A stretch of 64,000 nucleotides of DNA from Escherichia coli. GTDB lineage: Bacteria; Pseudomonadota; Gammaproteobacteria; Enterobacterales; Enterobacteriaceae. Location: NCBI RefSeq assembly GCF_011045215.1, contig NZ_CP049201.1; one strand, written 5' to 3'. The notes beneath the pieces were generated by a model that saw only the letters and a program-made list of their open reading frames with translations, searched no databases and was not told where the DNA came from. Position 1 is the stretch's first letter; each line of letters starts with the position of its first letter. Both the position numbers and the translations under genes were made by a program. Shown one piece after another: positions 5,044 through 30,004 of the stretch.

Positions 5044-5127
5044 ACCCCCTTGAACTTCGCCGGACGGCTATTTCCCACTTTGCTGATCTGGAGGCAGAGG
5101 CCGTCCGTATAAATGAGGAGATGAAGC

Positions 5128-7035: not shown

Positions 7036-7059
7036 CGCAGTCCTTTTTGAGGTCAGTCT

Positions 7060-8436: not shown

Positions 8437-9512
8437 ACGACAATGTCACGCTACGGGTAAATGGCCGGGAGTGGAATGGCTGGACATCGGTGCGCATCGG
8501 TGCCGGTATTGAACGGCTGGCGCGGGATTTCAGTGTGGAGATCACCCGCCAGTGGCCGGGTGATGAGGGTATCACCACGCTTCAGCCGCGCATTAAAAAC
8601 GGTTCAAAAGTGGAGGTGCTGATTGGTGATGAGCTGGTGATCACCGGCTGGGTGGAGGCGACGCCCGTTCGTTACGATGCCCGTTCGGTCAGCACCGGTA
8701 TTGCCGGACGTAGTCTGACGGCTGACCTGATTGACTGTGCAGCCGAACCGACACAGTTTAACGGACGCTCGCTGGTGCAGATTGCGCAGGCGCTTGCTGC
8801 GCCTTTCGGCATTGAGGTGGTGAACAGCGGTGCGCCGTCGGGTGTTATTCCTGATGTTCAGCCTGATCACGGTGAAACGGTGATTGAGGTAATCAACAAA
8901 ATACTCGGTCAGCAGCAGGCACTGGCTTACGACGATCCGCACGGCAGGCTGGTGATTGGCGGTATTGGCTCAACGCGGGCACATACCGCGCTGGTACTTG
9001 GGGAAAACATCCTTTCCTGCGATACGGAGAAGAGTATCCGGGAGCGGTTTTCAGTTTACCAGGTGGCGGGGCAGCGTGCCGGAAACGACGATGATTTCGG
9101 TGAGGCCACCACCACCGCGCTGCGGGCCCGCACAGAGGACGCATTTATTGCCCGTTACCGTCCGATGTATATCAGGCAGACAGGGCAGGCCACGGGGGCT
9201 GGCTGTATTGCGCGTGCTGACTTTGAAGCCCGGCAACGGGCGGCGCGGACGGATGAAACCACCTATGTGGTGCAGGGCTGGCGACAGGGTAACGGTACGC
9301 TGTGGCAGCCCAACCAGCGGGTGATTGTCTTTGATCCGGTCTGTGGTTTTGACAATACCGAACTGCTTGTTTCGGAAGTCACGTTTACTCAGGACCAGAA
9401 CGGCACCCTGACGGAAATCCGTGTCGGCCCGCCTGATGCTTATCTGCCTGAACCCGATGCCCCCGGCGCGCAGAAAAAGAAAAAAGCCAGAGTACAGGAG
9501 GACCCGTTCTGA
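8433..9512 (+). CDS. baseplate hub / tail protein (Mu P/gp44-like, P2 gpD-like)
   Basis: 359 aa; overlapping-start gene chain within the baseplate module. Confidence 0.7.
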   Translation: MNDNVTLRVNGREWNGWTSVRIGAGIERLARDFSVEITRQWPGDEGITTLQPRIKNGSKVEVLIGDELVITGWVEATPVRYDARSVSTGIAGRSLTADLIDCAAEPTQFNGRSLVQIAQALAAPFGIEVVNSGAPSGVIPDVQPDHGETVIEVINKILGQQQALAYDDPHGRLVIGGIGSTRAHTALVLGENILSCDTEKSIRERFSVYQVAGQRAGNDDDFGEATTTALRARTEDAFIARYRPMYIRQTGQATGAGCIARADFEARQRAARTDETTYVVQGWRQGNGTLWQPNQRVIVFDPVCGFDNTELLVSEVTFTQDQNGTLTEIRVGPPDAYLPEPDAPGAQKKKKARVQEDPF

Positions 9513-10060
9513 TGAGGACGATTGAAGCCATGCAGCGACAACTTCTCGGCCTGATTGGGCGGGCAGTGGTGAAAAGTATCAGCGCCGCCACGAAATGTCA
9601 GACCGTGGATGTGTCCCTGATTGCCGGTGAACCCAAAGCCGGGGTTGAACATCTTGAACCCTACGGTTTTACCGCAAGGGCAAACAGCGGTGCGGAAGCG
9701 GTGGTGTTGTTTCCGGATGGCGACCGTTCTCATGCGGTGGTTGTTACGGTGTCGGACCGGCGCTACCGCCTGAAAGGGCTGCAGACGGGTGAGGTGGCTG
9801 TCTATGACGATCAGGGGCAGTCTGTGACGCTGACCCGGGAGGGGATCGTGGTGGACGGTGCAGGTAAAACGATCACGTTTCGCAATGCGCCCAGAGCACG
9901 TTTTGAAATGGACCTTGAAGTGACCGGACAGGTGAAAGACCTGTGCGACTCCGGCGGCACTACCATGTCAGCGATGCGGCTTGCCTATAACGGGCATCGT
10001 CACAGAGAGAACGGTCAGGGCAGTAACACCGACAAACCTGATAAAGCGATGGAGGCATGA
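9512..10060 (+). CDS. baseplate assembly protein V (spike, Mu gp45-like)
   Basis: 182 aa; position between the hub and gp46-like genes. Confidence 0.7.
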   Translation: MRTIEAMQRQLLGLIGRAVVKSISAATKCQTVDVSLIAGEPKAGVEHLEPYGFTARANSGAEAVVLFPDGDRSHAVVVTVSDRRYRLKGLQTGEVAVYDDQGQSVTLTREGIVVDGAGKTITFRNAPRARFEMDLEVTGQVKDLCDSGGTTMSAMRLAYNGHRHRENGQGSNTDKPDKAMEA

Positions 10061-10485
10061 TGGAACTGTGGCTGACGGTGAACGGTAAACGCACCTGCGC
10101 CAGCGCACCGCTGGATCCGCTGACCCGCGCCGTGGTGATTTCCATGTTTACCTGGCGGCGGGCGGAGCCTGATGACAACGCCGACGTCCCGATGGGATGG
10201 TGGGGGGATACCTGGCCTGCGGTACAGAATGACCGTTACGGCTCCCGACTGTGGCTGCTTCAGCGCAGCAAACTGACCAATCAGCTGGTGCAGACGGTAA
10301 GGGGGTATATCCGCGAATGCCTGCAATGGATGATTGATGACGGCGTGGTGTCCCGTATTGATCTGGATATCCGCCGCACCGGGATTAATGAGCTGGGTAA
10401 CAGTATCACCCTCTGGCGTCGTGACGGACCGATAATGATTTCTTTTGATGATCTGTGGAGTGCGATAACGCATGGCGGACAGTGA
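10057..10485 (+). CDS. phage GP46 family baseplate protein
   Basis: 142 aa; baseplate module position. Confidence 0.7.
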   Translation: MMELWLTVNGKRTCASAPLDPLTRAVVISMFTWRRAEPDDNADVPMGWWGDTWPAVQNDRYGSRLWLLQRSKLTNQLVQTVRGYIRECLQWMIDDGVVSRIDLDIRRTGINELGNSITLWRRDGPIMISFDDLWSAITHGGQ

Positions 10486-11530
10486 ATTTCAGCGCCCGAC
10501 GCTGGCAGAAAATATCAGTATGCTCCGTAACGATTTATTCGCCAGGCTGGACGTCAGCGACACGCTCCGGCGCATGGATGAAGACGTGCGGGCAAAGGTG
10601 TATGCGGCGGCGCTGCATACGGTTTACGGTTACATCGATTATCTGGCAATGAACATGCTGCCTGACCTGTGCGATGAGTCCTGGCTGGCGCGACATGCTG
10701 CGATGAAACGGTGTCCGCGCAAGGGGGCCACGGCTGCCAGCGGGTATATGCGCTGGGAAGGTGTCAGCGATGGCCTGAAGGTGACCGCCGGGAGCGTGAT
10801 TCAGCGCGCTGACCTGGTTCAGTACACGGCAACTGCTGATGCAACCAGCTCCGGTGGTGTCCTGCGCGTGCCGATCACTTGCTCAAGTGCAGGCGCGGTC
10901 GGTAACGCTGACGACGGTACGGCATTAATCCTGGTCACGCCGGTGAATGGTCTGCCGTCTTCCGGTGTTGCAGATACCCTGACTGGCGGATTCGATACTG
11001 AAGATCTGGAAACGTGGCGCGCCCGCGTCATTGAGCGGTATTACTGGACGCCTCAGGGCGGGGCTGACGGGGACTATGTCGTCTGGGCTAAAGAAGTGCC
11101 CGGCATTACCCGCGCATGGACATACCGTCACTGGATGGGAACGGGAACTGTCGGTGTGATGATTGCCAGCAGTGACCTGATTAATCCCATTCCGGAAGAA
11201 TCAACGGAAACGGCGGCAAGACAACATATCGGGCCACTGGCCCCGGTGGCAGGCTCTGATTTGTATGTGTTCAGGCCGGTGGCACATACGGTGGATTTTC
11301 ATATCCGCGTGACGCCGGACACACCGGAAATACGGGCTGCCATCACCGCGGAGTTGCGTTCGTTCCTGCTGCGTGATGGTTATCCGCAGGGAGAACTGAA
11401 GGTATCGCGTATCAGTGAGGCGATTTCCGGTGCGAACGGGGAATACAGCCATCAGTTGCTTGCACCGGCAGACAATATCTCCATTGCAAAAAATGAACTG
11501 GCGGTTCTGGGGACGATTTCATGGACGTGA
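10472..11530 (+). CDS. baseplate J-like protein (Mu gp47 / e14 JayE-like)
   Basis: 352 aa; size and sequence character of the baseplate J family. Confidence 0.85.
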
Positions 11531-12105
11531 CAAACGATGATTACATCCGTCTGTTGTCGGCACTGTTGCCCCCCGGTCCGGCGTGGTCAGCCAGCGATCC
11601 GGCGATTGCCGGTGCGGCACCGTCATTAACCCGTGTTCATCAGCGTGCGGATGCCCTGATGCGGGAGCTGGATCCGCGCACAACCACCGAACTGATAAAC
11701 CGCTGGGAGCGTCTGTGCGGCCTGCCGGATGAATGTATTCCGGCAGGGACGCAGACCCTTCGCCAGCGTCAGCAACGGCTGGATGCGAAGGTTAATCTGG
11801 CGGGCGGCATCAATGAGGATTTTTACCTTGCACAGCTTGCTGCCCTGGGCAGACCAGACGCCACCATCACGCGATACGACAAAAGCACGTTCACCTGCTC
11901 ATCTGCCTGTACTGACGCGGTGAATGCGCCGGAATGGCGGTATTACTGGCAGGTCAACATGCCAGCCGCCACCAACACCACCTGGATGACATGTGGCGAT
12001 CCCTGTGATTCCGCACTGCGTATCTGGGGCGACACCGTAGTCGAGTGTGTGCTTAACAAACTCTGCCCGTCGCATACCTACGTAATTTTTAAATATCCGG
12101 AGTAA
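11521..12105 (+). CDS. YmfQ-like tail protein (DUF2313, Mu gp48-like)
   Basis: 194 aa with a Cys-rich C-terminus; position directly upstream of the tail fibre gene, as in e14. Confidence 0.75.
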
Positions 12106-12108
12106 TCC

Positions 12109-12642
12109 ATGCATCGTATAGACACGAAAACCGCGCAGAAGGATAAGTTCGGCGCGGGTAAGAACGGTTTTACCCGTGGTAACCCCCAGACCGGCACACC
12201 TGCCACCGATCTGGATGATGACTACTTTGACATGTTGCAGGAGGAGCTTTGCAGCGTGGTGGAGGCATCCGGTACCAGCCTGGAGAAGGGGAGGCATGAC
12301 CAGTTGCTTACCGCACTTCGCGCGCTGCTGTTAAGCCGCAAGAATCCGTTTGGCGATATCAAATCGGACGGCACGGTGAAAACGGCTCTCGAAAACCTTG
12401 GTTTGGGAGAAGCGGCAAAACGGGATGTGGGGACAGGGGAAAATCAGATACCGGACATGGCCTCTTTTGCCAGTGGTGATGGATGGATGAAATTACCCAA
12501 CGGGAAAATCCTGCAATATGGTCGTGGTGCGGTTACGCCGACATTATCGACGCAAACAATGAGAATTACATTCAGCATCCCTTTTCCTAAAAAGTGGACT
12601 GCGCCATGCTTACTCATTCTGGTGATGGTGGTGCGCCTTTAG
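12109..12642 (+). CDS. tail fibre protein: constant N-terminal part fused to the currently selected short variable C-terminal part
   Basis: 177 aa; contains the left crossover site encoding ...ENLGLGE...; the variable part may carry a frameshift near 12585-12600 (alternative frame reads ...[26 protein letters not shown]). Confidence 0.7.
12386..12411. repeat. left crossover site of the Pin-type invertible segment
   Basis: CTCTCGAAAACCTTGGTTTGGGAGAA: fits the Gin/Hin/Pin site form (TTNTCNNAAACC-NN-GGTTT...); inverted copy of the site at 14288-14313 (17/18 identical in the shared half). Confidence 0.7.
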
Positions 12643-12791
12643 GTGCTGGGCGGGGATTCGTGATGACCGCAGAAGGCCCAACATTAACCTGTTTTTAATT
12701 CCGCTTACAGAACTGCATCAACCAGTTCCACAGTATCGATGAATTACAGTTGGTGGGCTGTTGGTGAGTAATTTTATTCAGGGTGATTTAT

Positions 12792-13235
12792 ATGAACGAA
12801 TATGTTTATAGCGCAAGGAATAATGCTTTTTCCCTGTGGATATGATTGATAAATATAAATCAGAGGGATGGGATTTATCAGATGCAAAGGAGGTGAATCA
12901 AAATATTATCAGTGAGTTTATGGCTGAACCGCCACAAGGAAAAATCCGTATTGCCGGAGATGATGGGATGCCTGCGTGGGCAGATATTCCTCCACCCACG
13001 CATGAAGAGCTTATTGAAATTACTGAATCAGAAAGACAGCTACTAATTAACCGGGCCAACGAATACATGAACAGTAAATCTGTGGCCCGGTAAAGCCGCT
13101 ATTGGTCGTCTGAAAGATGATGAACTGGCGCAATATAATTTGTGGCTGGATTATCTGGACGCACTGGAGCTGATCGATACTTCCGGTGCGCCAGATATTG
13201 AATGGCCTACGCCTCCGGCAGTTCAGGCCAGATGA
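12792..13235 (+). pseudogene. tail fibre assembly protein (Tfa) disrupted by two frameshifts
   Basis: N-terminus MNEYVYSARNNAFSLWI* (12792-12845), middle segment in ORF 12836-13093, C-terminus ...AAIGRLKDDELAQYNLWLDYLDALELIDTSGAPDIEWPTPPA in a third frame ending at 13233-13235. Confidence 0.55.
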
Positions 13236-13809
13236 CATCCGGCGCGGTGCTGGTATCTGTTGCCGTCACCGCGTCAATGTAATCCAGCACAGCGTTAAGG
13301 CGGGTTGTTTCTGCCTGCGTCAGATTCCGTCCGGCCTGTAATTTCAGTTGAATCAGACTGATGGAGGCCATTGCAGTATGAATCAGCGACTGGCGCAGTG
13401 CTTCTGCTGCATCTACTGCTGCGCCGTGCTGTGCCTCGGTATCTGTCACCCATTTCTCACCATTCCATTTATCGTATGGCGTTAACGGGGCGATAGTGGT
13501 TGTATTTTCAGGATAATCACCCGGAGCTGTGATTTTTTCGATTCTCCTGTTTCGGTGCTATAGACGATTTCACCACGATGATCTGGCACATATTCCCATG
13601 AATTTAAATCTACAGAGCGACAGATTGCATAACCAGCTTTATGTGTAATAAGCATCCAAACAAGAACATGCCGGGATACCGACGCCGACAGCGAGATATT
13701 CAGTTGATGTAGAAATATATTCACGCGTTTCACCATCATAATTATAAATGATAATGTCTCCCGCTTTTATGGCAATGAGTTCACTATTTAATACAGCTTT
13801 ATTCATCAT
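13207..13809 (-). pseudogene. second tail fibre assembly protein (Tfa') disrupted by two frameshifts
   Basis: Starts ATG at 13809 overlapping the fibre stop (ATGA); frame switches near 13640-13660 and inside the T6/A6 tract at 13533-13538; C-terminus ...RLNAVLDYIDAVTATDTSTAPDVIWPELPEA. Confidence 0.55.
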
Positions 13810-14313
13810 GCAGCCCTCACAATATAATTAAAGGCGATGTTACGTGGACGATTTTCATTTGCTGTTGGAACAACATTTGCCGCCGAGAAGTGAACATCTT
13901 GTCGGATTTTTCGGTCATTAGCGTATGTCATAGACACATTGATGTTATTCCGGACTGAGGTACCTCCGTAAAAGCCCCACTCACACTTTGAACATCGACA
14001 ATTGCATTAATTTCGCTGTTTACGCGCAACTGACCAAAACCGCCAGTAATGTTTCGAATAGCATCTCCTTGCGATGAAAGCAGAGTTCGCCCACTATCCA
14101 CACCACGTTCATCATCCCATCCACGAATAAATTCACCGCGTAAATCAGGCAATTTATTTGTCGGGTAAGCCTTTGCCAGTTCCGGGTATTCTTCAGCAGA
14201 AAAAGCCGCACCATTGCATTTCAGCCAGCCTGTTGGCGGAGTGGCTGAAGGCCACGGAACAGGCACCCCAACCCCACATGCTGAGCCTTCTCCCAAACCA
14301 ACGTTTATGAAAA
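13806..14313 (-). pseudogene. alternative tail-fibre variable C-terminal segment (promoterless; joins the constant part after inversion), frameshifted
   Basis: Begins in frame at the right crossover site (...FINVGLGE...); main frame stops at 13928-13930, while the conserved fibre terminus ...EWGFYGGTSVRNNINVSMTYANDRKIRQDVHFSAANVVPTANENRPRNIAFNYIVRAA lies in another frame ending at 13806-13808. Confidence 0.55.
14288..14313. repeat. right crossover site of the Pin-type invertible segment
   Basis: TTCTCCCAAACCAACGTTTATGAAAA; inverted relative to 12386-12411; 55 bp upstream of the invertase start. Confidence 0.7.
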
Positions 14314-14367
14314 TGCAGAAATAACGAGCAAATGGCATCATTCCTGCTTTTGTCAGGGAGATCTACC

Positions 14368-15850
<1,483 letters not shown>

Positions 15851-15930
15851 CTAACCCTTTGAATTTACATAGCGCAAAAAGATACCTTTCCTCATAATGT
15901 GAGCTAATTTTATGTTTCGTTTGATGATCG

Positions 15931-15993
15931 GGTCGGTCTCGAAAACCGGAGTAGGGGCAACTCTACCGGGGTTCAAATCCCCCTCTCTCGCCA
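15931..15993 (+). tRNA. partial tRNA-Ser 3' fragment (serU-like anticodon/T-arm/acceptor 3' strand; pseudo-tRNA, probable prophage att core)
   Basis: GGTCTCGAAAACCGGAGTAGGGGCAACTCTACCGGGGTTCAAATCCCCCTCTCTCGCCA matches the 3' two-thirds of tRNA-Ser as recalled; the 5' acceptor/D-arm is absent. Confidence 0.6.
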
Positions 15994-16571
15994 CTTTATC
16001 AATGACTTATCTCCCGACTTCCCGTCTTGCTTTTCCTAAACAGAACAATCGTAGAATATTCTTGAAGGGTTAGATCGTCACTGTTTTCTGTTCGATACTG
16101 TGACATTCAGCACTTGATTCGCTATGGATCTGACAGGAAGGTTTTGAGCGAAAATCTGCAGTTATTCAGTCGTTTTCTTATCGGTCACCATTATTCTTTT
16201 AGACATTGATCCTACAAAGCTGCCGCAAAGTTGGTGGTGGGAACTGAAGTTGCGTAGAGAAGGGGTCAATACCCGGAGGCAAACATGGGCTGGCAAAAGT
16301 GTAGCGGTATTAGGCGCAGCTATTTAGCCTAGTTATGTTTTATGAAAACTTGATATCATATAAGTGTCTTACTTATTGGCTGTAAATAAGTTTTTCTAAG
16401 GAATTGTTTCTTGAGTATCATTTGTAACTGTAACGGAATTTATAATCCTTTGCTTTATTGTTACGGTATTTTTATCACACCCTATTTTTAGTGGTTTTTA
16501 TACTGAAGTTTGGCAAAGTGAACTTTATATACATATACTTCATCCTGTTTCAGTTAAATTGGGTGGATGAT

Positions 16572-17315
16572 ATGGCAACTACATGTTCAGTTATATTGAT
16601 TTTGGAGTCCTTTGATGTTTATTTCGGAAAAGAGAGTGTGTTTCTGGAGAGAGGTTCATCTGTACTTGTCGACTCTAGCTCTAGAGATTTTTTCCTGACA
16701 TATCCTGAAAGAGTGATAGTGGCGGATTTTGGCGCTGAGTTTATTAGTCGCTATTTGAAAGCTAATAACTTAAGGGATATTTCTGATTGTAGGGAATATC
16801 CATCTTATTTAAAAATAAACTTTGCTGACTTCAGTTTAATTAAAGGATTAATTAGTTGGGCTAATCACTGTGCTGAATACATAGAAATTTTTGATGAGTC
16901 TATTGCTTTTACATGTCTCTCTGCATTTTCTTCTGAAAAACAATTTGGAGTATTTCTGTTTGGATGTTTGAAAAGCACAGGGGCTAAAGTTAAAACGATT
17001 ATTCATACGGATTTATCTGCACCATGGCGTCTTAAGGATATATCATCAAGATTATATCTCAGCGAAAGTTTACTAAAGAGGAAATTGAAAGAAGAGGGGG
17101 TATCATTCAGTAAGATCATACTTGATGAGAGGATGCAAATGGCTGAATATTTACTCAGCACTCGTTGTTATCCTATTAGTAAAGTAGCTAAGGTCTGTGG
17201 TTATGCCAGTGTCTCATACTTTACTTATGTATTTAGACGTTATTTTGGTGTTTCTCCAAGTCAATACTCTCAGAGGAGTTCAGAAAGTAAAATTCTTACT
17301 CACCAGGGAATCTGA
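16572..17315 (+). CDS. AraC-family transcriptional regulator (AppY/EnvY/Rns-like)
   Basis: C-terminal HTH ...ISKVAKVCGYASVSYFTYVFRRYFGVSPSQY; N-terminus MATTCSVILILESFD aligns with the AppY start MDYVCSVVFICQSFD; AT-rich gene; the first 38 codons of track ORF 16458 are rejected. Confidence 0.8.
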   Translation: MATTCSVILILESFDVYFGKESVFLERGSSVLVDSSSRDFFLTYPERVIVADFGAEFISRYLKANNLRDISDCREYPSYLKINFADFSLIKGLISWANHCAEYIEIFDESIAFTCLSAFSSEKQFGVFLFGCLKSTGAKVKTIIHTDLSAPWRLKDISSRLYLSESLLKRKLKEEGVSFSKIILDERMQMAEYLLSTRCYPISKVAKVCGYASVSYFTYVFRRYFGVSPSQYSQRSSESKILTHQGI

Positions 17316-17321
17316 TCATTG

Positions 17322-17790
17322 TTCTTGCCCCCTTATTTCCAGACAGGGGGTGTATCTTAAGTTAACGTTACCCGCTGACGTCGATATTCTCGCGGAGAGC
17401 GATAACCCAACGCACTGTGCGGATGGTTTTCATTGTAATGTTCGATCGCCACTGCAAGATTATGCAATGCCGTTCTTACATTCGGTTTCGGCATGAACGC
17501 GATGTAGTCTTCCTTCATCGTTTTCACGAACCTTTCTGCAATTCCATTACTCTGAGGACTGCTGATTGCCGTTGTGCAGGGCTCCAGATTCAACTCTCTG
17601 GCGAACTGCCGTGTTTCATGCGCTCTATACGCTGAACCGTTATCTGTCAGCCACTGGATGGACTGTTCCGGTACTTTATCGCCAAAGCGTTTTTCTATCG
17701 CTCCTAACATGACATCCTGCACTGTCGCTTTATCGTAACCTCCCGTGCTTGCGGCCCAGTCTATGGCTTCACGATCGCAACAGTCCAGGG
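17322..17790 (-). mobile_element. IS2 remnant (terminal inverted repeat plus 3' part of the transposase gene; truncated)
   Basis: TTGCCCCCTTATTTCCAGACA end sequence at about 17326-17350; ORF 17357-17722 encodes an IS3-family integrase-core C-terminus (...[17 protein letters not shown]...); only about 0.45 kb of a 1.3-kb element is present. Right boundary is approximate. Confidence 0.55.
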
Positions 17791-18069
17791 CGATTCATCT
17801 GGGCCAATCCTCGCTCATAACAGGCATTCACTTCAGTCATGGCAGAAAGGTATGCATGCTGGAGAAGTCGTGAAAGAAAAGAAGACTGCTGCGCCGTTTG
17901 TCGTCACGTTTATCTTCATTGGCTATGCAAGTCGTAATACAAGGTGGGACAAAACTGAGACACATAAGGCCTCGCAATGGCTTGCAAGGCTTTACATGTT
18001 TTGATGTGGTGGGACGTGTGAGCGCAGTGTTGATGGGGTAATGCTTTGAATTAGAAGCGGATTCTTATA

Positions 18070-18115
18070 ATTCGTAATGCGAAGGTCGTAGGTTCGACTC
18101 CTATTATCGGCACCA
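18070..18115 (+). tRNA. partial tRNA-Thr (thrW) 3' fragment (pseudo-tRNA / att core)
   Basis: ATTCGTAATGCGAAGGTCGTAGGTTCGACTCCTATTATCGGCACCA equals the 3' 46 nt of thrW as recalled; the 5' half is replaced by unrelated sequence. Confidence 0.7.
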
Positions 18116-18280
18116 TTTCAACGTCTTTTCCCGTCTATTAAAATCCAAAAAACCCGCATATACTCTAGCTTTGAGCGCCCCCGATAGTGTTTTAACGTCT
18201 ATCAATATCTCCTAAAATCCACGTCTTTTGGGGGTATATTCGGGGGTATATGCTGTGTGGGCTACTGGAGATACCCCCAA

Positions 18281-19471
18281 ATGAAACTAAATGCCCGTCA
18301 GGTCGATACGGCCAAACCGAAAGAAAAACCCTATAAACTGGCCGATGGTGGTGGGCTTTATCTGCTTGTTAATCCCAATGGTTCCCGGTACTGGCGTTTA
18401 AAGTACCGGGTAGCCGGAAAAGAAAAGCTGTTGGCGCTGGGGGTATATCCCGATGTAACCCTGGCTGATGCCAGGGCGAAACGAGATGAGGCCAAAAGGG
18501 GTATGGCTGGGGGGATCGACCCGAACGAAGCGAAGCGGGAAGAAAAATTGAACCGCGAAGCGCAAATCAAAAACACCTTCGAAGAAATCGCCAGAGAGTG
18601 GCATACAGAACGGCAGAAGAAATGGTCTGAGGGGTACGCCTCGGACATTCTGGAAGCATTCAGTAAAGACATATTCCCTTGGATTGGAAAACGCCCCATC
18701 ACGGAAATAAAGCCCCTTGATTTGCTGAATACGCTTAAACGCATCGAGAATAGGGGAGCGACTGAAAAGGCCCGTAAGGTTCGCCAGTGGTGCGGGGAGG
18801 TCTGGAAGTATGCGATCGTTACCGCCCGCGCAGAATATAACCCCGCCCCTGATCTATCTGTGGCTATGGAAGGACACGAAGGGGAGCACTTCCCCCATCT
18901 GGAAGCCGAAGAGTTACCCGAATTTTTCCAGACGCTGGCGACGGCAAAAAGTAACGTTCAGGTTATTTTGGGGCTGCGTCTGCTTATTCTTGTGGGGTTA
19001 CGTCCGGTTGAATTACGCGCGGCCCCGTGGTCAGAGATTGATTTTGATAATGCCTTGTGGGAGATCCCCAAAGAGCGAATGAAGAAAAGACGTCCGCACG
19101 TTGTCCCGCTTTCTCGCCAGGCTATGGTTATTCTCGGGCAATTAAAAGAGTTGTCGGGCCGCAATCCTTTCATTTTTCCGGGCCGGAACGACCCGCGAAA
19201 GCCAATGAGTGAAGGAGCAATTAATCAGCTAATAAAGCGACTCGGGTATAAGGGCAAAGCTTGCGGGCATGGTTTCCGACATACCATGAGCACAATTTTG
19301 TATGAGAAAGGGTATAACACCGAATGGATCGAAACCCAGCTTGCACATGTTGATAAAAATACCATCCGTGGCACATATAATCATGCCCGCTATCTGGATG
19401 GACGCCGGGAAATGCTTCAATGGTATGCCGACTATATGGAATCGCTGGCGAGTGGCAGGGTAAAAGATTAG
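18281..19471 (+). CDS. P4-type tyrosine integrase
   Basis: MKLNARQVDTAKPKEKPYKLADGGGLYLLVNPNGSRYWRLKYR... is the canonical P4/CP4 integrase N-terminus; C-terminal HxxR...Y catalytic region present; lies 165 bp after the thrW fragment. Confidence 0.9.
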   Translation: MKLNARQVDTAKPKEKPYKLADGGGLYLLVNPNGSRYWRLKYRVAGKEKLLALGVYPDVTLADARAKRDEAKRGMAGGIDPNEAKREEKLNREAQIKNTFEEIAREWHTERQKKWSEGYASDILEAFSKDIFPWIGKRPITEIKPLDLLNTLKRIENRGATEKARKVRQWCGEVWKYAIVTARAEYNPAPDLSVAMEGHEGEHFPHLEAEELPEFFQTLATAKSNVQVILGLRLLILVGLRPVELRAAPWSEIDFDNALWEIPKERMKKRRPHVVPLSRQAMVILGQLKELSGRNPFIFPGRNDPRKPMSEGAINQLIKRLGYKGKACGHGFRHTMSTILYEKGYNTEWIETQLAHVDKNTIRGTYNHARYLDGRREMLQWYADYMESLASGRVKD

Positions 19472-19511
19472 AGAAGGTCTAAGACGGGAATACCGCTAAA
19501 TTAGATGTTAG

Positions 19512-19547
19512 GCGTGGACACTCAGCATCCACGCTTAAACTTTTTAT
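19512..19547 (+). terminator. rho-independent terminator of the integrase gene
   Basis: GCGTGGA-(9 nt)-TCCACGC hairpin followed by a T-rich tract (TTAAACTTTTTATT). Confidence 0.6.
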
Positions 19548-20041
19548 TATCATTTTCAATGAATTATGATTTTGGAAATTTTATAAAAAACACCAAGATT
19601 ACTAATCTATTGATTAATATGAAATATTTCTTTTTTTGATTATTAATTGTGCTCTTGATTGTTGTTTTTATGGTGTTAATTTATAAAAATCTTATTTATA
19701 GGAATTAACATTATATAGTTGGCACTTTTTGCTAAAATCTGTTTTTATTGTGTTTTATTTTTATTTCATTTTTGTTGTTGTTTGTTTGATTTTTAGTGTC
19801 TTTATATCTGGCTAATTGATTTCACTCAAACCATAAATCCTTTCAGAGGCTTCTAGAGTCTTCCTGAGGCTTAAATTGACTTAACTAAAAGTCAAGCCCC
19901 ACATCCCACATACATCTTTTTGACATGCACTTATGGCGTGAATAACAATGACTTCATCCAATCTACAGGCATCCTATAAAGTCAATGTCTGTATATAGAA
20001 AGATATTACATAACGTTTGAATGTTAATAGCGGGTGTGAAT

Positions 20042-20260
20042 ATGAGAAATGATGCAATGCAGCTTTTAAACCAGGGAAAAAGATTGATCCGCCTGCCTGA
20101 AGTTATGATGCTTACGGGGCGGTGTCGCGCCAGTATTTATAAAGATATCAATGCAAATGTCTTTCCAAAGCCGATTAAAACCGGCCCGCGTTCTGTCGCA
20201 TGGGTTGAGGGTGAGATCAGCGACTGGATCGACAACAAAATCAAAGAGCGCAAAGTGTAA
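20042..20260 (+). CDS. alpA: AlpA-family phage regulatory protein (excisionase-like)
   Basis: ...RLIRLPEVMMLTGRCRASIYKDINANVFPKPIKTGPRSVAWVEGEISDWI... matches the AlpA pattern; start is ambiguous (20042 or 20057). Confidence 0.75.
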   Translation: MRNDAMQLLNQGKRLIRLPEVMMLTGRCRASIYKDINANVFPKPIKTGPRSVAWVEGEISDWIDNKIKERKV

Positions 20261-20459
20261 ATCTGATTTTATTCAGAGATGAATATGATTTATTTGAATG
20301 CTAAGGATTTTGTGTATTCTTTTTGTTGTAAATACTCGTAGCATGGGGAGTTGGCAGTATTTATTCAGTATTAGGTTAAGTAGTGATAAAATACCAGGTA
20401 ATGCCGGTTTATGCAGTGTTTAATATATTTGTTGCTGGCGAAAATTTACGGAAAATTAA

Positions 20460-21332
20460 ATGAACATTACTGATATTATCAGCCATCGCGTATATCGTGA
20501 TGCGGATCTTGCTGTCATTAATAACACGGCATTTATTCAGCCTTATGACGGTTGTCACCGTGGGTTGTATGAAATGCGCGTTATTGAACTTTATCGCCTG
20601 AATAAAATGATGCACCTTACCCACGAATATAAATCTATTTCCGGGGAAAGCGTAGGCATTCCGGCGACTAAAGAGGAACTGTTTACACTGGTTAATAAAG
20701 GGCATGAACTTTGCCAGTCTGAACGGGAAAAGCTGGCGGCACTTGAAGCAGAATTGCAGCGTCTGCCAAGCCCGGCTGTAATTCCTGCGCCGCAGACGAT
20801 TAAAGAAGCACAGCAGGCCCGTAAATCACTAGAAGATGAAAGATACAGACTGCATCACGCAGCAATTAAAAATCAAGTCAAAGCACAGCAGGAAGAGTTA
20901 TCCATCAGACAAAACATTCTGGAATTGCTCGCGCCGGTTATTGATGTGTTGTTGGCCGTGGAAGATGTGGAACTGCTCGATCTGCGCCGTTCCCTGCCTA
21001 AGTCATCCCTCGATGCTAAGGCATTCAAAAAGGCGATTTCTGAAATTGAGTGTGCTGACCTTGCCTGGCAGAAAATGGATAAACTGGAGATTGCCCTTAA
21101 CAAGGTGGTGAACAACTGCACATATCGCCCGGAAGGAAGCATTAATCCCCGTTTTGTTAACCCTCTTAATGAAGATAAGCGGGAACGCGCCGAAATATCA
21201 CGCGATTATTACAGCTCTGAAATGGCCTTTATTCATACGGTGATGAGTGCAGATGAATATTTAAATTATATGTTGCCGATCCGTCACCAGCAGCGCGCGC
21301 AACGACTCACATTAGAAAGAAATATCAACTAA
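20460..21332 (+). CDS. hypothetical coiled-coil protein (possible capsid scaffold / size-determination factor)
   Basis: 290 aa with a long Gln/Glu/Leu-rich heptad-like central region; immediately upstream of, and on the same strand as, the capsid-like gene. Confidence 0.45.
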   Translation: MNITDIISHRVYRDADLAVINNTAFIQPYDGCHRGLYEMRVIELYRLNKMMHLTHEYKSISGESVGIPATKEELFTLVNKGHELCQSEREKLAALEAELQRLPSPAVIPAPQTIKEAQQARKSLEDERYRLHHAAIKNQVKAQQEELSIRQNILELLAPVIDVLLAVEDVELLDLRRSLPKSSLDAKAFKKAISEIECADLAWQKMDKLEIALNKVVNNCTYRPEGSINPRFVNPLNEDKRERAEISRDYYSSEMAFIHTVMSADEYLNYMLPIRHQQRAQRLTLERNIN

Positions 21333-21341
21333 GGAAGAATT

Positions 21342-22349
21342 ATGTCTTATGTAACACCAGATTATTTAACGCAGTATCACGAAAACCTGATTAAGTCTTT
21401 TAATATTAAATATAAAAACGAAGATACGGGGTATTTCACCATATCACAGCCGGAAAAAGCATCTCCGGATGCATGGGGATGTTCCACGCTTGATGTTAAA
21501 GGCTCGTCCTGGCTGATTGATAATATTTCATTACTGGACATTATCGGTGCGGATGGCACGACGATCACCATCGGTGATGGTTCCCTTTATACAGGCCGTG
21601 CAAAGGAAGGTCGCTTTCATAAGAAACTAAAAACCAACGGAACACCTTTTTTATTATCAGAAACGGATTCCTGCGCCTCATTGACTTATGAAGAAATGGC
21701 GGTAATGGCAAACGCGAAAAATTTCAGTAATGAAATGATCATTTTTTTCAAGAAGGCCGTGGTGCGGGATATGCTCCGTATTGGATTTAACGGCAAGATG
21801 ATTGCCGAAAATACCAACCCGGAACAATATAAAAACGGCGAAGATATCAATATTGGCTGGCACTCGCTGGCAAAAACATTCAATAACGGTTCACAAATTA
21901 TTTCTGATGCTTTCGCACTGGGGAAAGGCGGTGATTTTGCCGATGTTCACGATCTGGCTGATTGCCTCATCACGTCAAAAATCCCCGAAGGTCAGCGCGA
22001 AGATCCGGGCCTTGTGGTGATGGTTGGCGCGCAACTTGCCGCCCGCGAACGACTGAAACTGTTCAACATGGCCGATCAACCACTGACGCTGACGGCGGGG
22101 GATATGCTGACAAGCAGTGTCGCCGGTCGCTTTGCTTTTATCCCGCCGTTTATGCCGGGTAAGCGCCTGGCTGTTACGACGCTGAAAAATTTGCAGATCC
22201 TGACGCTGAAACACAGCCAACGCTACCGCGCGGAGGATATCCCGCAACGAGGTGTTTATGAGCATGGCTATTTACGTGAGGAAGGTTACGCGCTGGGGGA
22301 TGGCTATCTTTACGCGGCCAGCGATGAGAACGCCGTAACGCTGGTTTAA
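21342..22349 (+). CDS. P2 GpN-family major capsid protein homologue
   Basis: Segment LGKGGDFADVHDLADCLITSKIPEGQREDPGLVVMVGAQLAA parallels P2 gpN VGKGGDYASLDALVMDATNNLIEPWYQEDPDLVVIVGRQLLA (recalled from memory); FNGKM... also parallels gpN FNGVK... Confidence 0.6.
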   Translation: MSYVTPDYLTQYHENLIKSFNIKYKNEDTGYFTISQPEKASPDAWGCSTLDVKGSSWLIDNISLLDIIGADGTTITIGDGSLYTGRAKEGRFHKKLKTNGTPFLLSETDSCASLTYEEMAVMANAKNFSNEMIIFFKKAVVRDMLRIGFNGKMIAENTNPEQYKNGEDINIGWHSLAKTFNNGSQIISDAFALGKGGDFADVHDLADCLITSKIPEGQREDPGLVVMVGAQLAARERLKLFNMADQPLTLTAGDMLTSSVAGRFAFIPPFMPGKRLAVTTLKNLQILTLKHSQRYRAEDIPQRGVYEHGYLREEGYALGDGYLYAASDENAVTLV

Positions 22350-22561
22350 GTATCGAGTACAGCCAGCTTTGACAGTGATGGCCAGATAAAAGAAAACCCT
22401 CTCACCGGAACGAACAAGAAACGATAAGAGGGTTTATCAGGAAGATGATTCTACGTGATGAATTATACCGAGAAACAACCGATGCTTACCAGCAAAAACG
22501 CGTCACTGTTTGTGCAGCTGGCACCGTCCGATCTGACGGTGTTTTCCGGAATGGTAAGGAG

Positions 22562-22753
22562 CTATTCCTTTGCCTTTTTGCGCTGTTCTGCTTTCAGCTT
22601 GCGCCCGCAGGCATCCAGCACCCAAGCGGAAAAACTTGAACCCGGATTATCGACTTTTTCGCGTTCTACGCAGGCATCAATTTCTGCGATCATTTCATGC
22701 GGGAAGCGTATTCCCTTGTATGTTGTTTTGCTGTTTATGTGGTTTTTAGTCAT
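22562..22753 (-). CDS. putative small DNA-binding regulator (ribbon-helix-helix-like), about 63 aa
   Basis: MTKNHINSKTTYKGIRFPHEMIAEIDACVEREKV... has RHH-like strand-helix character; divergent from the downstream operon with operators between; start codon uncertain (M15/M24/M33 of the track ORF). Confidence 0.45.
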   Translation of the reverse strand: MTKNHINSKTTYKGIRFPHEMIAEIDACVEREKVDNPGSSFSAWVLDACGRKLKAEQRKKAKE

Positions 22754-22769
22754 GCTGGAAACTCTTAAG

Positions 22770-22870
22770 TGTTTAAACATCAGTAAAGATACAGTAAAGC
22801 CGGACATAACAAAACTGTTTAAACAAAATCTGTTGACTTGTTTAAACACTCAGCATAATGTGTTTAAACA
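22770..22870. promoter_or_regulatory. operator array: four copies of the palindrome TGTTTAAACA within divergent promoters
   Basis: Exact copies at 22770-22779, 22816-22825, 22839-22848 and 22861-22870; TTGACT (22833-22838) and CATAAT (22854-22859) hexamers interleave with the right-hand pair. Confidence 0.6.
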
Positions 22871-22960
22871 GTTTGCTACGTTGCAAACTGAAAAAACGAA
22901 GCCCGGCAGTGTTGACGCACTAACCGGGCCTCTGACCAACACGTTATTAGGAGTAACGCT

Positions 22961-23164
22961 ATGGCTAGCCATCAGTGTAACCAAACTCGCCCTAAAAATC
23001 GCCTATTTCTCTTTCTCGCGGTATCACGGGCCGACATGCAGGACAAACCACACCGCGAACAAATCACCGCGTACAGCGAACAGGAAGCCCGTTCCATGCT
23101 GGCCGGTCGCTTTATCCTCTGCTTTGCTGGCCGTCTGCCGGTTCAGGAGGTGCACCATGTTTAA
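22961..23164 (+). CDS. hypothetical protein (67 aa), first gene of the coupled operon
   Basis: AGGAG 7-8 nt upstream of the ATG; stop overlaps the next start (ATGTTTAA). Confidence 0.4.
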   Translation: MASHQCNQTRPKNRLFLFLAVSRADMQDKPHREQITAYSEQEARSMLAGRFILCFAGRLPVQEVHHV

Positions 23165-23405
23165 CCCACTGGACAACCGCAAAGCGGCGGCGCTTAACCC
23201 GTTCCACGATGACTGTTACGATCCGCCAGCCTTTATTAAACCGGGTTCAAAAGTAGTGGTTGAAATTGATTCCCGGGAAATGGAGGTCGCTATTCTAGCC
23301 GCTTATGACTACGGACTGGACGCGCTGAACGACGATGGCCGGGAAGAGCTTAACCGCTTAATTGCTGACCTGAAAGACAAGATAACGGAGGCGCGGTATG
23401 CATAA
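23158..23405 (+). CDS. hypothetical protein (82 aa)
   Basis: Strong SD (caGGAGGtg) before the ATG at 23158; acidic protein; the rest of track ORF 22455-23405 is rejected. Confidence 0.55.
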
Positions 23406-23823
23406 TCTGCTTAATTCACCGTTGCCAGTGTCTATGGATCTCTTTCAGGCTGGCGAGATGTGCGGGCATTTTGTCGCGCGGTTAACGGATGAAAGTTGTG
23501 TTGACGAGACTGAACGCGTCGCACTTTGCGGACGTCTGGCTTTTGCCCTGCGTTCTCTTTCATCTCTTTGTGATACAGACTATCCATCGCATATCCAGGC
23601 GCAATTAACCGCGACTGCTATTCCTGCTCCCTGCGTACCTGATGAGTGGATCGACGCGACGATCATGACGGGCTATTGCACCGCCTTAAATGATGCGCTG
23701 CTTAGTCGCTCCCTTCGTATGGACGTTGAAACACAATTACGCTGGCTTTTGCATGACATGATTAATTTACTTGTCAGATATCTGAAACAGCCTTGTATTA
23801 AGGCGGGAGTAGATCATGTCTGA
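23398..23823 (+). CDS. hypothetical protein (141 aa)
   Basis: Start overlaps the previous stop by 8 nt; Cys-containing; no known motif. Confidence 0.55.
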   Translation: MHNLLNSPLPVSMDLFQAGEMCGHFVARLTDESCVDETERVALCGRLAFALRSLSSLCDTDYPSHIQAQLTATAIPAPCVPDEWIDATIMTGYCTALNDALLSRSLRMDVETQLRWLLHDMINLLVRYLKQPCIKAGVDHV

Positions 23824-24214
23824 AATTATGCTCACACCGTTTCACGTTGACCGCCATTTTTACGATCTGGTTTACGGTGCTTCATTTTTTGCGGATGCAT
23901 TACCTGCAATGAATGATATCAAGCAGCAGCGGCTTTATTGTCGATTATTGCAATTAAATCTGGTTGTTTTATTTGAAAAACGGTCGCGGGATATTCCCCC
24001 AATTCAGTCGAGTAAAATAAAAATCGCTGATGAGGTTATATTTCTTAATGTCGATAATATTTATCATGCGCTTTCCCTGACTGCCGGGCTGATAAGTCAG
24101 GATATCAGTAAGGGGATGGAAAAAGAACTGGCTGAATATATCAGGGATATTATTAGTATTATTTTTAATGAAATGCGAATGCAGATGGTTGATTATGATC
24201 CATATGAAATGTGA
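23816..24214 (+). CDS. hypothetical protein (132 aa), AT-rich gene
   Basis: Start overlaps the previous stop by 8 nt; composition shifts to AT-rich. Confidence 0.5.
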   Translation: MSEIMLTPFHVDRHFYDLVYGASFFADALPAMNDIKQQRLYCRLLQLNLVVLFEKRSRDIPPIQSSKIKIADEVIFLNVDNIYHALSLTAGLISQDISKGMEKELAEYIRDIISIIFNEMRMQMVDYDPYEM

Positions 24215-24310
24215 GACGAATAAAACAATAATCGATTTATAAGAACTGAAAAATATTTAATTATAACCGTATTTTAACGGGGGATAATTACGCCCCTGTA
24301 AGGAAAATAT

Positions 24311-24580
24311 ATGTCTGATTTGAATACCATTGCTGTTAATAGTGCTGAAAAATATCTTAGCCTTGAGTGCTTCCATAAACTCAACCGCGCAAGGAATGTT
24401 TCATTCCAGATGCATTTACAGATCCGTCAGTGTGAGATAAACGGCCTGCCACTTTTATGGATTCCAGATATTTTCAGCTATATCAGCGAAGACATATCCG
24501 CCGTTCTGGAAGAAGCCAAAGTACTTGGCCTTTGCGATAAGTTCACAGGCGAAGCCCGGATCGGTCAGGTCAGTCTTTAA
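24311..24580 (+). CDS. hypothetical protein (89 aa)
   Basis: Same strand, between the coupled operon and the primase gene. Confidence 0.45.
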   Translation: MSDLNTIAVNSAEKYLSLECFHKLNRARNVSFQMHLQIRQCEINGLPLLWIPDIFSYISEDISAVLEEAKVLGLCDKFTGEARIGQVSL

Positions 24581-24643
24581 TTTTTTGTATTCCGCGCCGC
24601 CCGCTGCGGCGCATTGTCTTACCCATTAATAAAGGTCATACCG

Positions 24644-27376: not shown

Positions 27377-27419
27377 GACCTGCTGACACCGCTATAACTA
27401 ACGGTGTTGGCCAGCTTCC

Positions 27420-27700
27420 GGCCCTGGAAACATAGCCAGCCAGGAAGAAGTGATCGCACGTATCATATTTTTTAGTGGAAACAGTGGGAACATAGGGAAC
27501 AGACTTGATTTATAAAGGTTTTATTTGTTCCCAATTACTGTTCCCATATGGTAACAGGTGGTAATGTATTTTAAATCATATGGTTATGTTGATATGCAAA
27601 GCGTTGTTCCCAGTTGTAAAAGAGAGATGGGAACAGGAAAAAGGTATAAATATCAACACTGTTACCATTGTTCCCACTGTTTCCACCATTTTTGACAATA
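27420..27700. repeat. iteron cluster (GGGAACA / TGTTCCC heptamers), putative replication origin or cis replication region
   Basis: At least 7 exact copies in both orientations plus variants (GGAAACA, TGTTACC, TGTTTCC) within about 280 bp directly after the primase gene; resembles P4 ori/crr TGTTCACC iterons. Confidence 0.55.
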
Positions 27701-27724
27701 ACAATATTTAATTTCGGGGAAAAT

Positions 27725-27741
27725 GCTTTTCCCTGGCTGGC
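27725..27741. repeat. 17-bp direct repeat, left copy (GCTTTTCCCTGGCTGGC)
   Basis: Exact copy of 30005-30021; lies 20 bp upstream of the P2-like integrase start. Confidence 0.5.
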
Positions 27742-27760
27742 TAACATCAAAGGTAAAGAA

Positions 27761-28726: not shown

Positions 28727-28754
28727 CTGCGGATTTTCTTTTGAATGTACAAAA

Positions 28755-29012
28755 CTAACGTTGAAGTAATTCTTTCATGACCGTTTTTTGTTCCGGCGTC
28801 ATCATGTCAATCATTGTTTTTACTGCTTTATCCCCAGTCAGAGCGCTGGGGCTTAGCGTATGGGAGAACGTCATATTCATAACGAAGGTATGCCCACATT
28901 CAACATTATTACAGGCACAATACATATCAGACAGGTGGGGATGCTTGCGCACTGTCTTTTTTGTTGTTGAATTACTTCCACACTCAGGACAAACAATTTT
29001 ATGGCTGCGCAT
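28755..29012 (-). CDS. Ogr/Delta-family zinc-finger transcriptional activator
   Basis: CPECGSNSTTKKTVRKHPHLSDMYCACNNVECGHTF: a CxxC...CxxxxC zinc finger typical of P2 Ogr / P4 Delta; convergent with the integrase, 28 bp apart. Confidence 0.8.
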   Translation of the reverse strand: MRSHKIVCPECGSNSTTKKTVRKHPHLSDMYCACNNVECGHTFVMNMTFSHTLSPSALTGDKAVKTMIDMMTPEQKTVMKELLQR

Positions 29013-30001: not shown

Positions 30002-30004
30002 ACA

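Follow-up and report, generated by a model that had tools for sequence, protein, structure and literature searches.

Ser and Thr tRNA 3' fragments at the right end of a thrW prophage in Escherichia coli

The region from 15.9 to 18.1 kb in the E. coli DNA analyzed here very likely comprises a temperate prophage's cargo slot and its right attachment site at thrW, with a second thrW-specific element, a P4-like satellite, abutting it. The two tRNA pieces in this region are recombination relics. The window, the whole 64,000-nucleotide stretch that was analyzed, begins inside the prophage. Both the left end of that prophage and the serU locus lie outside the window, and the architecture was read from collinear genomes.

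The original prediction described the two pieces as 3' attachment scars of tRNA-Ser and tRNA-Thr left by two different integrases, neither of them a functional tRNA, and this description held. Both were confirmed by alignment, to serU nucleotides 29 to 90 and thrW nucleotides 31 to 76, and both are 3' tRNA attachment cores of two integrase specificities. With only these portions present, neither is a functional gene for tRNA-Ser (CGA) or tRNA-Thr (CGU). ARAGORN found no tRNA genes in the whole window, and an Rfam scan of the window returned nothing at the gathering score. A permissive Rfam scan gave only a sub-threshold tRNA-Sec match (27 bits) and a spurious plastid UTR match, both over the Ser piece, so that no tRNA or other RNA family accounted for either fragment. 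Probes of 20 and 25 nt from the two fragments found no matches in shuffled windows. We also considered the serU anticodon arm (TCTCGAAAACC) as a hix/gix half-site of the neighbouring Pin invertase. This reading was rejected: by eye only one half-site matches, and the sites for inversion have to lie on either side of the tail-fibre segment, upstream of pin.

The right end of the left prophage appears to be the thrW fragment and not the Ser fragment, which had been taken for a prophage right end brought to a thrW island. On the plus strand, positions 18070 to 18115 are identical to thrW nucleotides 31 to 76 (46/46). Three common bases downstream extend the core to 18118. It is preceded at 17794-18069 (plus strand) by the P arm of a thrW-specific attP of the lambdoid/SfIV type, recognized by its likeness to SfIV, phage 21 and lambda-like phage DNA. 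Positions 17945-18117 are 98.3% identical to the attP region of Shigella phage SfIV between gtrA and int, and 17811-18004 match the DNA next to int in phage 21 and lambda-like phages at 87.6% identity. A conserved 82-nt element at 17946-18027 forms a long hairpin on the minus strand (fold z = -2.9) and has a 97.6%-identical counterpart in K-12 at the right end of DLP12, 40 nt upstream of the 3' fragment of argU. The thrW core thus has the composition of an attR, an identical tRNA 3' core preceded by P-arm DNA homologous to a known attP. The matching attL, an intact thrW followed by the integrase far to the left, is present in the collinear genomes of O157:H7 (L001) and strain 602687 (L019). 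In strain 602687 the order is thrW, int, phage, cassette, thrW', chromosome. The same core is also the attL of the right-hand satellite, because the satellite integrase gene directly follows. Where a genome has only the prophage, the native flank ttaaaatcaaagagttacccc... comes after the thrW core; the window has this flank again only at 30210, where the chromosome resumes.

The satellite is an island of about 12 kb at 18119-30192 (plus strand), assigned from PHROG matches and the annotations of 98%-identical islands in two other loci (L020 and L021). Its genes code for AlpA, a P2-family major capsid protein, an Icd-like protein, a derepression protein, a DUF927 primase, a second tyrosine recombinase and YefM/YoeB. 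The first integrase, at 18281-19471 (plus strand), is a P4-type (arm-binding) tyrosine integrase (NCBIfam PRK09692 integrase domain, 306 bits). It is 72% identical to integrases following thrW' in other genomes, and in L020 it directly follows the intact thrW. Like P4-type satellites, the island combines such an integrase beside a tRNA with AlpA, Icd-like and derepression regulators and a large primase, without a full virion gene set. An iteron-like cluster at 27486-27675 holds seven copies of TGTTCCC/GGGAACA, against three in the rest of the window. An Ogr/Delta gene is annotated in the L020 and L021 relatives; in the window the second integrase ORF covers part of that stretch. Four satellite proteins gave no matches with PADLOC. 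When we searched the window for a third strong thrW core bounding the satellite, only a degenerate 17-nt copy was found (GTTTAACTCTTATTATC, 30193-30209, plus strand). This copy is the putative satellite attR and has about 20 nt deleted relative to the same island elsewhere. The satellite of the window is rare, with only three of 5,426 genomes carrying at least 58% of it.

The prophage and satellite have accreted in tandem at thrW, as Sp1 and Sp2 did in O157:H7, since other E. coli genomes carry the prophage alone, the satellite alone, or both. Only the prophage occupies thrW in EC93 (L011) and strain 602687, and only the satellite, right after an intact thrW, in L020. O157:H7, E8, fM51a, a15 and JNEC-KY203 encode both, as does the window, with the native flank displaced beyond the last element. 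Tandem island accretion had been among the explanations first offered for the two fragments. These occupancy states bear it out for the Thr fragment, whereas the Ser piece appears to be fossil cargo within the prophage. Either of the two elements may have reached thrW first.

The Ser core lies at 15934-15993 (plus strand) and aligns with nucleotides 29 to 90 of serU, for which the tRNA-Ser (CGA) gene of locus L004 was the reference. A looser likeness begins to the left of this core, at 15925 (serU nucleotide 20). The window copy has two one-base deletions, with a G5 run one base short and a CC reduced to a single C, relative to a core that in O157:H7 and EC93 is identical to serU (62/62 nt). 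The match runs past the tRNA end to 16271 at 96-97.7% identity. These 278 bp (15994-16271, plus strand) are host DNA, the chromosomal spacer between serU and yodB, and they are contiguous with the Ser core as at chromosomal serU. Almost every one of the 5,426 E. coli genomes has this DNA downstream of serU, derivatives of K-12 and BL21 included, and the chromosomal breakpoint of the captured spacer falls at ...CAATA|ATTG.... To the left of the core, 15806-15933 (plus strand) is the apparent phage-side (P-arm) remainder of a serU-type attR and is collinear with the serU locus of MB15 and RMDEC332. In those two genomes the GIY-YIG gene, the junction and the Ser core run directly into the spacer and yodB at the true serU locus. 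The order in MB15 is pinE, GIY-YIG, Ser core, yodB. A chimeric query joining the PD-T4-3 gene, junction, Ser core, spacer and DNA towards yodB was matched end to end in two genomes at 97% identity.

The Ser piece therefore seems to be the fossil attR of a serU-resident ancestor with captured host DNA, and not to have been made at this site, because its cassette is found in phages and in att-lambda and thrW prophages, and the same right arm is at the true serU locus in MB15. Packaged phage genomes contain both the hybrid attachment site and the chromosomally contiguous DNA, consistent with capture of the specialized-transduction type, a mechanism that we infer. In the a15 relative the Ser-like sequence stops after its first 16-20 nt and other cargo follows, so some junction events would have fallen inside the core. 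A full-text literature search found no description of the provenance of the Ser piece.

The cassette is a 1.86-kb mosaic of the serU core and spacer, a 56-nt IS630-family end, patE and an IS2-group stump. The IS630-family remnant (16272-16327, plus strand) stops exactly at the right inverted repeat. Annotated IS630-family transposase genes match it at their 3' ends with 93-98% identity, and its position in the element was read from locus L009. An AT-rich region (16328-16571, plus strand; 31-37% G+C) within the conserved cassette precedes patE (16572-17315, plus strand), itself in a stretch of 31-36% G+C. patE codes for a prophage regulator of the AraC/XylS family with 247 residues, all identical to those of WP_000246059.1 from O157:H7 strain 7386WT, the sole AraC-family gene product of that strain's thrW prophage. 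PatE corresponds to z0321 in OI-8 of EDL933, an equation that rests on position, as the only AraC gene in the OI-8 prophage, and on a review (PMC10877973). As summarized in the same review, PatE activates the acid-resistance genes gadE/hdeA in the O157:H7 strain EDL933 (PMC10877973). We would expect PatE to be the only active component of the 15.9-18.1 kb interval. It had been described as AppY/EnvY-like, and orthology with either was rejected. PatE is 28% identical to AppY, aligns with EnvY over 127 residues only (39% identity), and has YdeO as its best NCBIfam model at 148 bits against a cut-off of 348. What it has in common with AppY and EnvY is the AraC/XylS family and a location at a prophage end.

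The IS2-group (IS3-family) stump lies on the minus strand at 17321-17793 and retains the C-terminal 145 codons of orfB and the IS end. It matches positions 149-289 of the 301 in the NCBIfam IS2 TnpB model (230 bits), and full-length relatives share 94-96% identity with it. In the form of the cassette found at att-lambda (L008) the stump extends further, by at least 16 nt. It had been called a truncated IS2. K-12 carries several IS2 copies. A megablast search of K-12 strains with 17321-18069 gave a sole match, to the unrelated 82 nt at 17946-18027 (query 626-707), and left the stump unmatched. It is thus a truncated relative within the IS2 group, IS2-like and not IS2 itself. That IS elements mark the internal junctions was correctly anticipated, these being the IS630 end and the IS2-group stump.

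Beyond the window, phages PhiR70_1, ev099 and mEp332 carry the cassette (15933-17793) at 98.6-99.1% identity, placed between the tail-fibre assembly gene and attP-int, and it is also encoded in att-lambda prophages adjoining ybhB-bioA. The patE segment is present in 644 genomes, and 80% or more of 15800-18300 in 325. Earlier, the regulator and the IS stump had been viewed as trapped between two elements. As both are inside the prophage and inside packaged phage genomes, between the tail-fibre genes and attP, they are instead phage cargo. The slot between the tail-fibre genes and attP is the b-region slot of lambda, which holds gtr in SfIV and mcrA in e14. Left of the Ser core, both types of cassette-bearing backbone are collinear with the right arm of prophages at the real serU. 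L008 and ev099 are 97% collinear with the serU prophage L005 from tail-fibre assembly through attR to the exact 278-bp point.

The left prophage is e14/SfIV-like with a Mu-like tail. Over its structural genes (1-14300) it shares 98.6% identity with an e14-like prophage that occupies icd in XH988, and the best full-length matches of parts of the window have 97-98.6% identity. A pinE-type serine invertase (14332-14922, plus strand) ends the tail-fibre inversion module; it was assigned from serine-recombinase family matches, and pinE is annotated in the collinear O157, E8 and MB15 loci. It is followed by a GIY-YIG gene for the anti-phage defence system PD-T4-3 (14868-15805, minus strand), identified with PADLOC and split into two ORFs by frameshifts. 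The two adjacent ORFs match model positions 1-121 and 122-244, and the gene is an intact 257-aa CDS in O157, EC93 and MB15. Relative to O157 its indels are at 15018 and 15387-15388. The comparison with O157 shows six one-base deletions, each in a short run of two to seven identical bases, and a CT insertion. Sequencing error could account for the deletions, which makes it uncertain whether the Ser core and the PD-T4-3 gene have really decayed in the window.

We propose that a serU-resident ancestor took its attR junction and the adjacent host DNA into a phage genome. The route may have been imprecise excision of the lambda-bio type, or recombination involving an IS630 copy that had inserted into the spacer. 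The capture would fit imprecise excision, cointegration mediated by IS630 and simple recombination between prophages alike. The captured fragment would then have been fused, via the now truncated IS630, to a patE-bearing b region, and the hybrid would have had an int/attP module for att-lambda or thrW, either retained or newly gained. Its 340 bp of serU-derived DNA, core and spacer together, could provide homology with the attR of any serU prophage, which would explain a move of the cassette between lambda-tailed and Mu-like-tailed backbones.

The prediction that IS- or prophage-mediated rearrangement had brought the two fragments together fared poorly. As a local event in this strain, an inversion, translocation or deletion mediated by an IS or prophage would have joined a serU prophage to a thrW island. 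The Ser fragment would then be the true prophage right end, with patE and the IS stump as trapped debris. As far as 16271 the left arm does represent a type of phage resident at serU, with its right arm, attR and flanking host DNA, and there are IS remnants at both internal junctions. However, identical junctions (99%) are found in at least 325 complete genomes of unrelated lineages, each with a separate match at the serU locus, and the cassette sits inside packaged phage genomes between tail fibre and attP. In strain 602687 and O157:H7 the whole unit lies between the intact thrW with its integrase and the thrW' repeat. Host DNA is limited to 278 bp, and the yodB side of the chromosome is absent. 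A serU-thrW rearrangement at this site is highly improbable and is not needed, as the Ser piece would have been carried in with its 278-bp host spacer. Juxtaposition of the two tRNA pieces by a misjoin of repeats in the assembly is more improbable still, although several one-base deletions in short runs against a 99.6%-identical reference suggest an error-prone read technology. Misassembly of the junctions is judged very unlikely because every junction from 15.9 to 18.1 kb recurs in more than 300 independent complete genomes; the junctions recur in phage genomes as well. Similarly, the junction of thrW' with the satellite recurs in JNEC-KY203, and that of the satellite with the chromosome in two further genomes.

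We regard as unlikely a further idea, that the serU core and spacer themselves form a portable docking sequence. In this role they would be a secondary attB, used by serU-specific integrases, or a patch of homology to the attR of any serU prophage. If true, the acid-resistance regulator patE could pass by way of the 340 bp from one temperate phage backbone to another, unrelated one, and from one integration site to the next. Where a cell harbours a serU prophage as well, the 340 bp could favour rearrangements mediated by Int between the thrW and serU regions. The stricter version, in which the Ser core is still a usable landing pad for serU-specific integrases such as those of Sp14-type phages, is less likely again. 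Site-specific and not homologous recombination would then have produced the two different left contexts. In its favour, the cassette is joined to two unrelated backbones at the point where the core begins (15933 in the window), the core is identical to serU in O157 and EC93, and O157:H7 has the serU prophage Sp14 in the same cell (PMC8190617). Both left contexts, however, are native attR junctions of serU prophages, and homologous exchange over the 340-bp core and spacer is just as good an explanation for them. The one full prophage examined, that of strain 602687, has a single integrase, of the thrW type, and no nested serU-type element, and nested integration was absent from all loci inspected.

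With a fossil serU attR carried as cargo of a thrW prophage as the preferred reading, the 15.9-18.1 kb region is well-understood phage biology, at a well-studied prophage hotspot, and has little significance beyond annotation. The lesson for annotation is that a partial tRNA within a prophage is not always the edge of an element; in this case the edge is the Thr piece, 2 kb beyond the Ser piece, which is cargo. In the Ser piece, nature provides a neat example of how a phage can fix a scar of the transduction type, which has then spread over backbones (lambda- and Mu-like-tailed) and sites (att-lambda and thrW). Its provenance could be of modest interest to those tracing the movement of the prophage moron patE.

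Among known systems, one of the closest is the thrW prophage of O157:H7 (Sp1/Sp2; CP-933H, O-island 8 and its neighbour), to whose right end 14286-18122 of the window is 99.6% identical. Both have in common pinE, GIY-YIG, the Ser core, spacer, IS630', patE, the IS stump, the P arm and thrW', and in both an element with a P4-type integrase follows thrW'. Sp1 and Sp2 lie together at thrW as a compound prophage (PMC8190617). The left prophage of O157 is a 12-kb lambda-like remnant, whereas the collinear part of the window continues into a full Mu-like tail module. The satellites also differ, and the satellite integrase of the window is not similar at the DNA level to that of O157. Like the window, the K-12 prophage DLP12 has at its right end (appY...ompT...argU 3' fragment, known as pauD ... 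envY) an AT-rich AraC-family regulator as cargo after tail-fibre remnants. In DLP12 too, the 82-nt P-arm element lies about 40 nt before the 3' tRNA fragment that is the prophage attR. Unlike the window, the core is argU and not thrW, AppY has only low identity to PatE, and no second tRNA fossil or captured host spacer was seen at the DLP12 right end.

Similar to the window prophage, the Shigella flexneri serotype-converting phage SfIV has a closely matching attP half, targets thrW and keeps its cargo between the tail genes and attP; SfV, SfII and SfX belong to the same serotype-converting group. The e14-like prophages share the head, Mu-like tail and pin architecture, but e14 uses icd while the window prophage uses thrW. 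The cargo differs as well, being gtrA/B/type in SfIV, mcrA in e14, and PD-T4-3 with the patE cassette in the window. In the specialized transducing phages lambda-bio and lambda-gal, a hybrid attachment site is followed by host DNA that had flanked the prophage, the two lying after the b region and ahead of the early genes, and the order in ev099 and L008 is the same. Unlike them, the cassette phage retains only 278 bp of non-coding host DNA and is not int-defective, having a different int/attP module downstream. Its host-phage junction is a truncated IS630-family element, and its capture route is one that we infer.

Two tRNA 3' fragments lie in the window where the original prediction had placed them. 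Nucleotides 29-90 of serU, the tRNA-Ser gene beside yodB (reference locus L004), align with 15934-15993, and a weaker resemblance begins at 15925. The stretch 18070-18115 corresponds to nt 31-76 of the tRNA-Thr gene thrW of O157:H7 (L001) with 0 mismatches. Probes from each fragment had one match in the window and 0 in shuffles. That neither is a tRNA gene, as also predicted, agrees with ARAGORN, which called 0 tRNA genes in the 64 kb, and with Rfam, in which no tRNA in the window reached the gathering score; the sole hit of a permissive scan was sub-threshold (27 bits) and fell on the Ser piece. The only Rfam hit in the window at the gathering score was IS009 (189 bits, 42681-42879, plus strand), which is placed between ORFs collinear with yagU and ykgJ and has no relation to the tRNA fragments.

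The 276 bp left of the Thr fragment are phage attP DNA. The region between gtrA and int of Shigella phage SfIV is 98.3% identical to 17945-18117, and 17811-18004 is similar to DNA close to int in phage 21 and lambda-like phages. Because these 276 bp match phage attP regions, 17794-18118 is a P arm and core, and so the attR of the left, e14/SfIV-like prophage. The left end of this prophage and the serU locus fall outside the window. Within the P arm, an 82-nt element (17946-18027) has a 97.6%-identical counterpart in K-12 at the DLP12 right end, 40 nt ahead of the argU 3' fragment there. Att sites specific for thrW (SfIV-type) and for argU (DLP12) both retain this element. Read on the minus (int-sense) strand, it folds (z = -2.9) into a stem of ~17 bp with a U-rich tract behind it, possibly a retroregulator of the sib/tI kind or a terminator acting on int.

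The interval between the fragments holds an AT-rich AraC-family gene and what is left of an IS3-family orfB, its 3' stump. Beyond the tRNA, the match to the serU locus goes on through 278 bp of serU-yodB spacer, to 16271 (96-97.7% identity), and this spacer DNA is found at serU in nearly all of 5,426 genomes. At 16272 it is joined to an IS630-family element of which only the final 56 nt remain, ending exactly at the inverted repeat; the regulator gene and then the IS stump follow. The resulting 1.86-kb cassette (15933-17793) was found again elsewhere at about 99% identity: in phages PhiR70_1, ev099, and mEp332, between tail-fibre assembly and attP-int-xis; in att-lambda prophages beside ybhB-bioA; and in thrW prophages. 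Strain 602687 carries a single prophage with the order intact thrW, integrase, phage genes, tail fibre, Ser core, regulator, IS stump, and thrW 3' fragment. As this order ends at the thrW fragment, the Ser piece, regulator, and stump are cargo within the bounds of the prophage and not, as had been proposed, material trapped between two elements; the three phages speak to the same point.

The regulator gene (16572-17315, 31-36% G+C) encodes a protein that matches, at 247 of 247 residues, the one AraC-family protein encoded by the thrW prophage in O157:H7. It is PatE (z0321, OI-8), a reported activator of gadE/hdeA acid resistance and repressor of some LEE genes (PMC10877973). The predicted likeness to AppY holds at the family level only, with 28% identity to AppY and 39% to EnvY over only 127 residues. 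The IS stump (17321-17793, minus strand) has a profile match to the IS2 TnpB subfamily model. In K-12 strains, the sole megablast match of 17321-18069 was the unrelated 82-nt P-arm element, and full-length relatives carry annotation as IS3-family only. Given the model match and a K-12 match confined to DNA outside the stump, the stump is from a relative in the IS2 group and not from IS2 itself, as had been suggested.

The Ser piece is an attR fossil that has captured host spacer and moves with patE. To the left of the Ser core, the lambda-tailed carriers L008 (an att-lambda prophage) and ev099 are 97% collinear with L005, a prophage at the true serU locus. The shared stretch extends from tail-fibre assembly, takes in attR, and breaks off exactly at the 278-bp point. 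A chimeric query of the window's left arm (pinE, GIY-YIG/PD-T4-3), Ser core, spacer, and chromosomal DNA past that point had end-to-end matches in two genomes at 97% identity. MB15 has at its real serU locus a Mu-like baseplate, tail fibre, pinE, GIY-YIG, Ser core, and yodB. The window up to 16271 is therefore the right arm and attR, with a short piece of host flank, of a phage type that resides at serU.

The original prediction also allowed for a local rearrangement. A strain-specific serU-thrW rearrangement or misassembly is very unlikely, as all junctions were found again in hundreds of independent complete genomes and in phage genomes. A functional role of the Ser core as a secondary attB has a low probability: it is unneeded to account for the data, and the only full prophage examined (strain 602687) lent it no support. 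Capture of a serU attR would be the most economical history, and we infer four steps. A serU prophage would have taken its attR junction and adjacent host DNA into a phage genome, either excising imprecisely in the manner of lambda-bio or making use of an IS630 copy located in the spacer; the sequence fits either. The captured fragment would then have been fused to a patE-bearing b region, and the hybrid would have used an att-lambda or thrW int/attP module. The 340-bp host-derived patch could have let exchange with other serU prophages occur, giving two backbones with one cassette. In a15 (L013 6920-6945), only the first 16-20 nt of Ser-like sequence (GATCGGGTCGGTCTCGAAA) are kept, followed by a hairpin and a SIR2 gene. 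As this junction falls inside the Ser core, it points to further illegitimate events in the cargo slot.

This slot, after pinE and before attR, varies among e14/SfIV-like prophages (L013, L016, L018, and L021). XH988 (at icd) has mcrA there, a15 an acyltransferase, PD-T4-3, and a SIR2-family gene, JNEC-KY203 a DUF262 gene, and SfIV gtrA/B/IV. It acts as a hotspot for defence and host modification. Upstream of pinE, a tail-fibre inversion segment (12109-14331) with opposed tail-fibre and assembly ORFs resembles the layout of e14 and Mu-type phages. The GIY-YIG gene adjoining pinE (14868-15805, -) matches the PADLOC PD-T4-3 anti-phage defence model. It is intact (257 aa) in O157:H7, EC93, and MB15 but is two ORFs in the window, where a T-run has lost a base at 15018 and CT has been inserted at 15387-15388. 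Six one-base deletions were found relative to the 99.6%-identical O157:H7 (15018, 15967, 15988, 16395, 16468, and 16546), all in short runs of 2-7 identical bases. With the CT insertion, they account for the two Ser-core gaps and the split PD-T4-3 gene, and all may be sequencing errors. Deletions placed in this way are what errors of sequencing or assembly typically leave, and apparent pseudogenisation here is to be read with caution.

A P4-type integrase begins directly right of the Thr fragment and belongs to a 12-kb P4-like satellite (18116-30209) encoding AlpA, a P2-family major capsid protein, an Icd-like protein, a derepression protein, a DUF927 primase, and YefM/YoeB. The satellite is rare: in a set of 5,426 complete E. 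coli genomes, only 2 have 80% or more of it. Seven TGTTCCC/GGGAACA heptamers (27486-27675) sit shortly downstream of the primase gene, with 3 in the rest of the 64 kb; the cluster looks like a putative iteron-type replication origin. There is also an extra tyrosine recombinase at ~27.7-28.7 kb, a stretch that is shorter and otherwise annotated in the two closest relatives. The right end is a degenerate 17-nt thrW-like core (30193-30209), beyond which lie the native thrW downstream flank and then chromosomal LysR, SDR, pao, yagU, and ecp. Compared with the islands of JNEC-KY203 and Z1323HEC0462, the satellite attR (30193-30217) is without ~20 nt, the last thrW-like core bases and the first native-flank bases. 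With its attR core truncated, the satellite may no longer be excisable.

Every occupancy state of thrW was seen among other complete E. coli genomes. The prophage is alone, with the thrW fragment followed by native flank, in EC93 and strain 602687; the same satellite is alone, directly after intact thrW, in Z1323HEC0462; and the two are in tandem in O157:H7, E8, fM51a, a15, and JNEC-KY203. The Thr fragment joint is thus a case of tandem accretion at thrW, one part of the original interpretation that was borne out; its trapped material was not. As biology this is ordinary, and in essence already known. For one part only, the fossil attR that holds captured host spacer and travels with patE, was no description found in the literature searched. 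Tandem accretion at thrW is known for Sp1/Sp2 of O157:H7 (PMC8190617), and like them the window has two elements in tandem at thrW.
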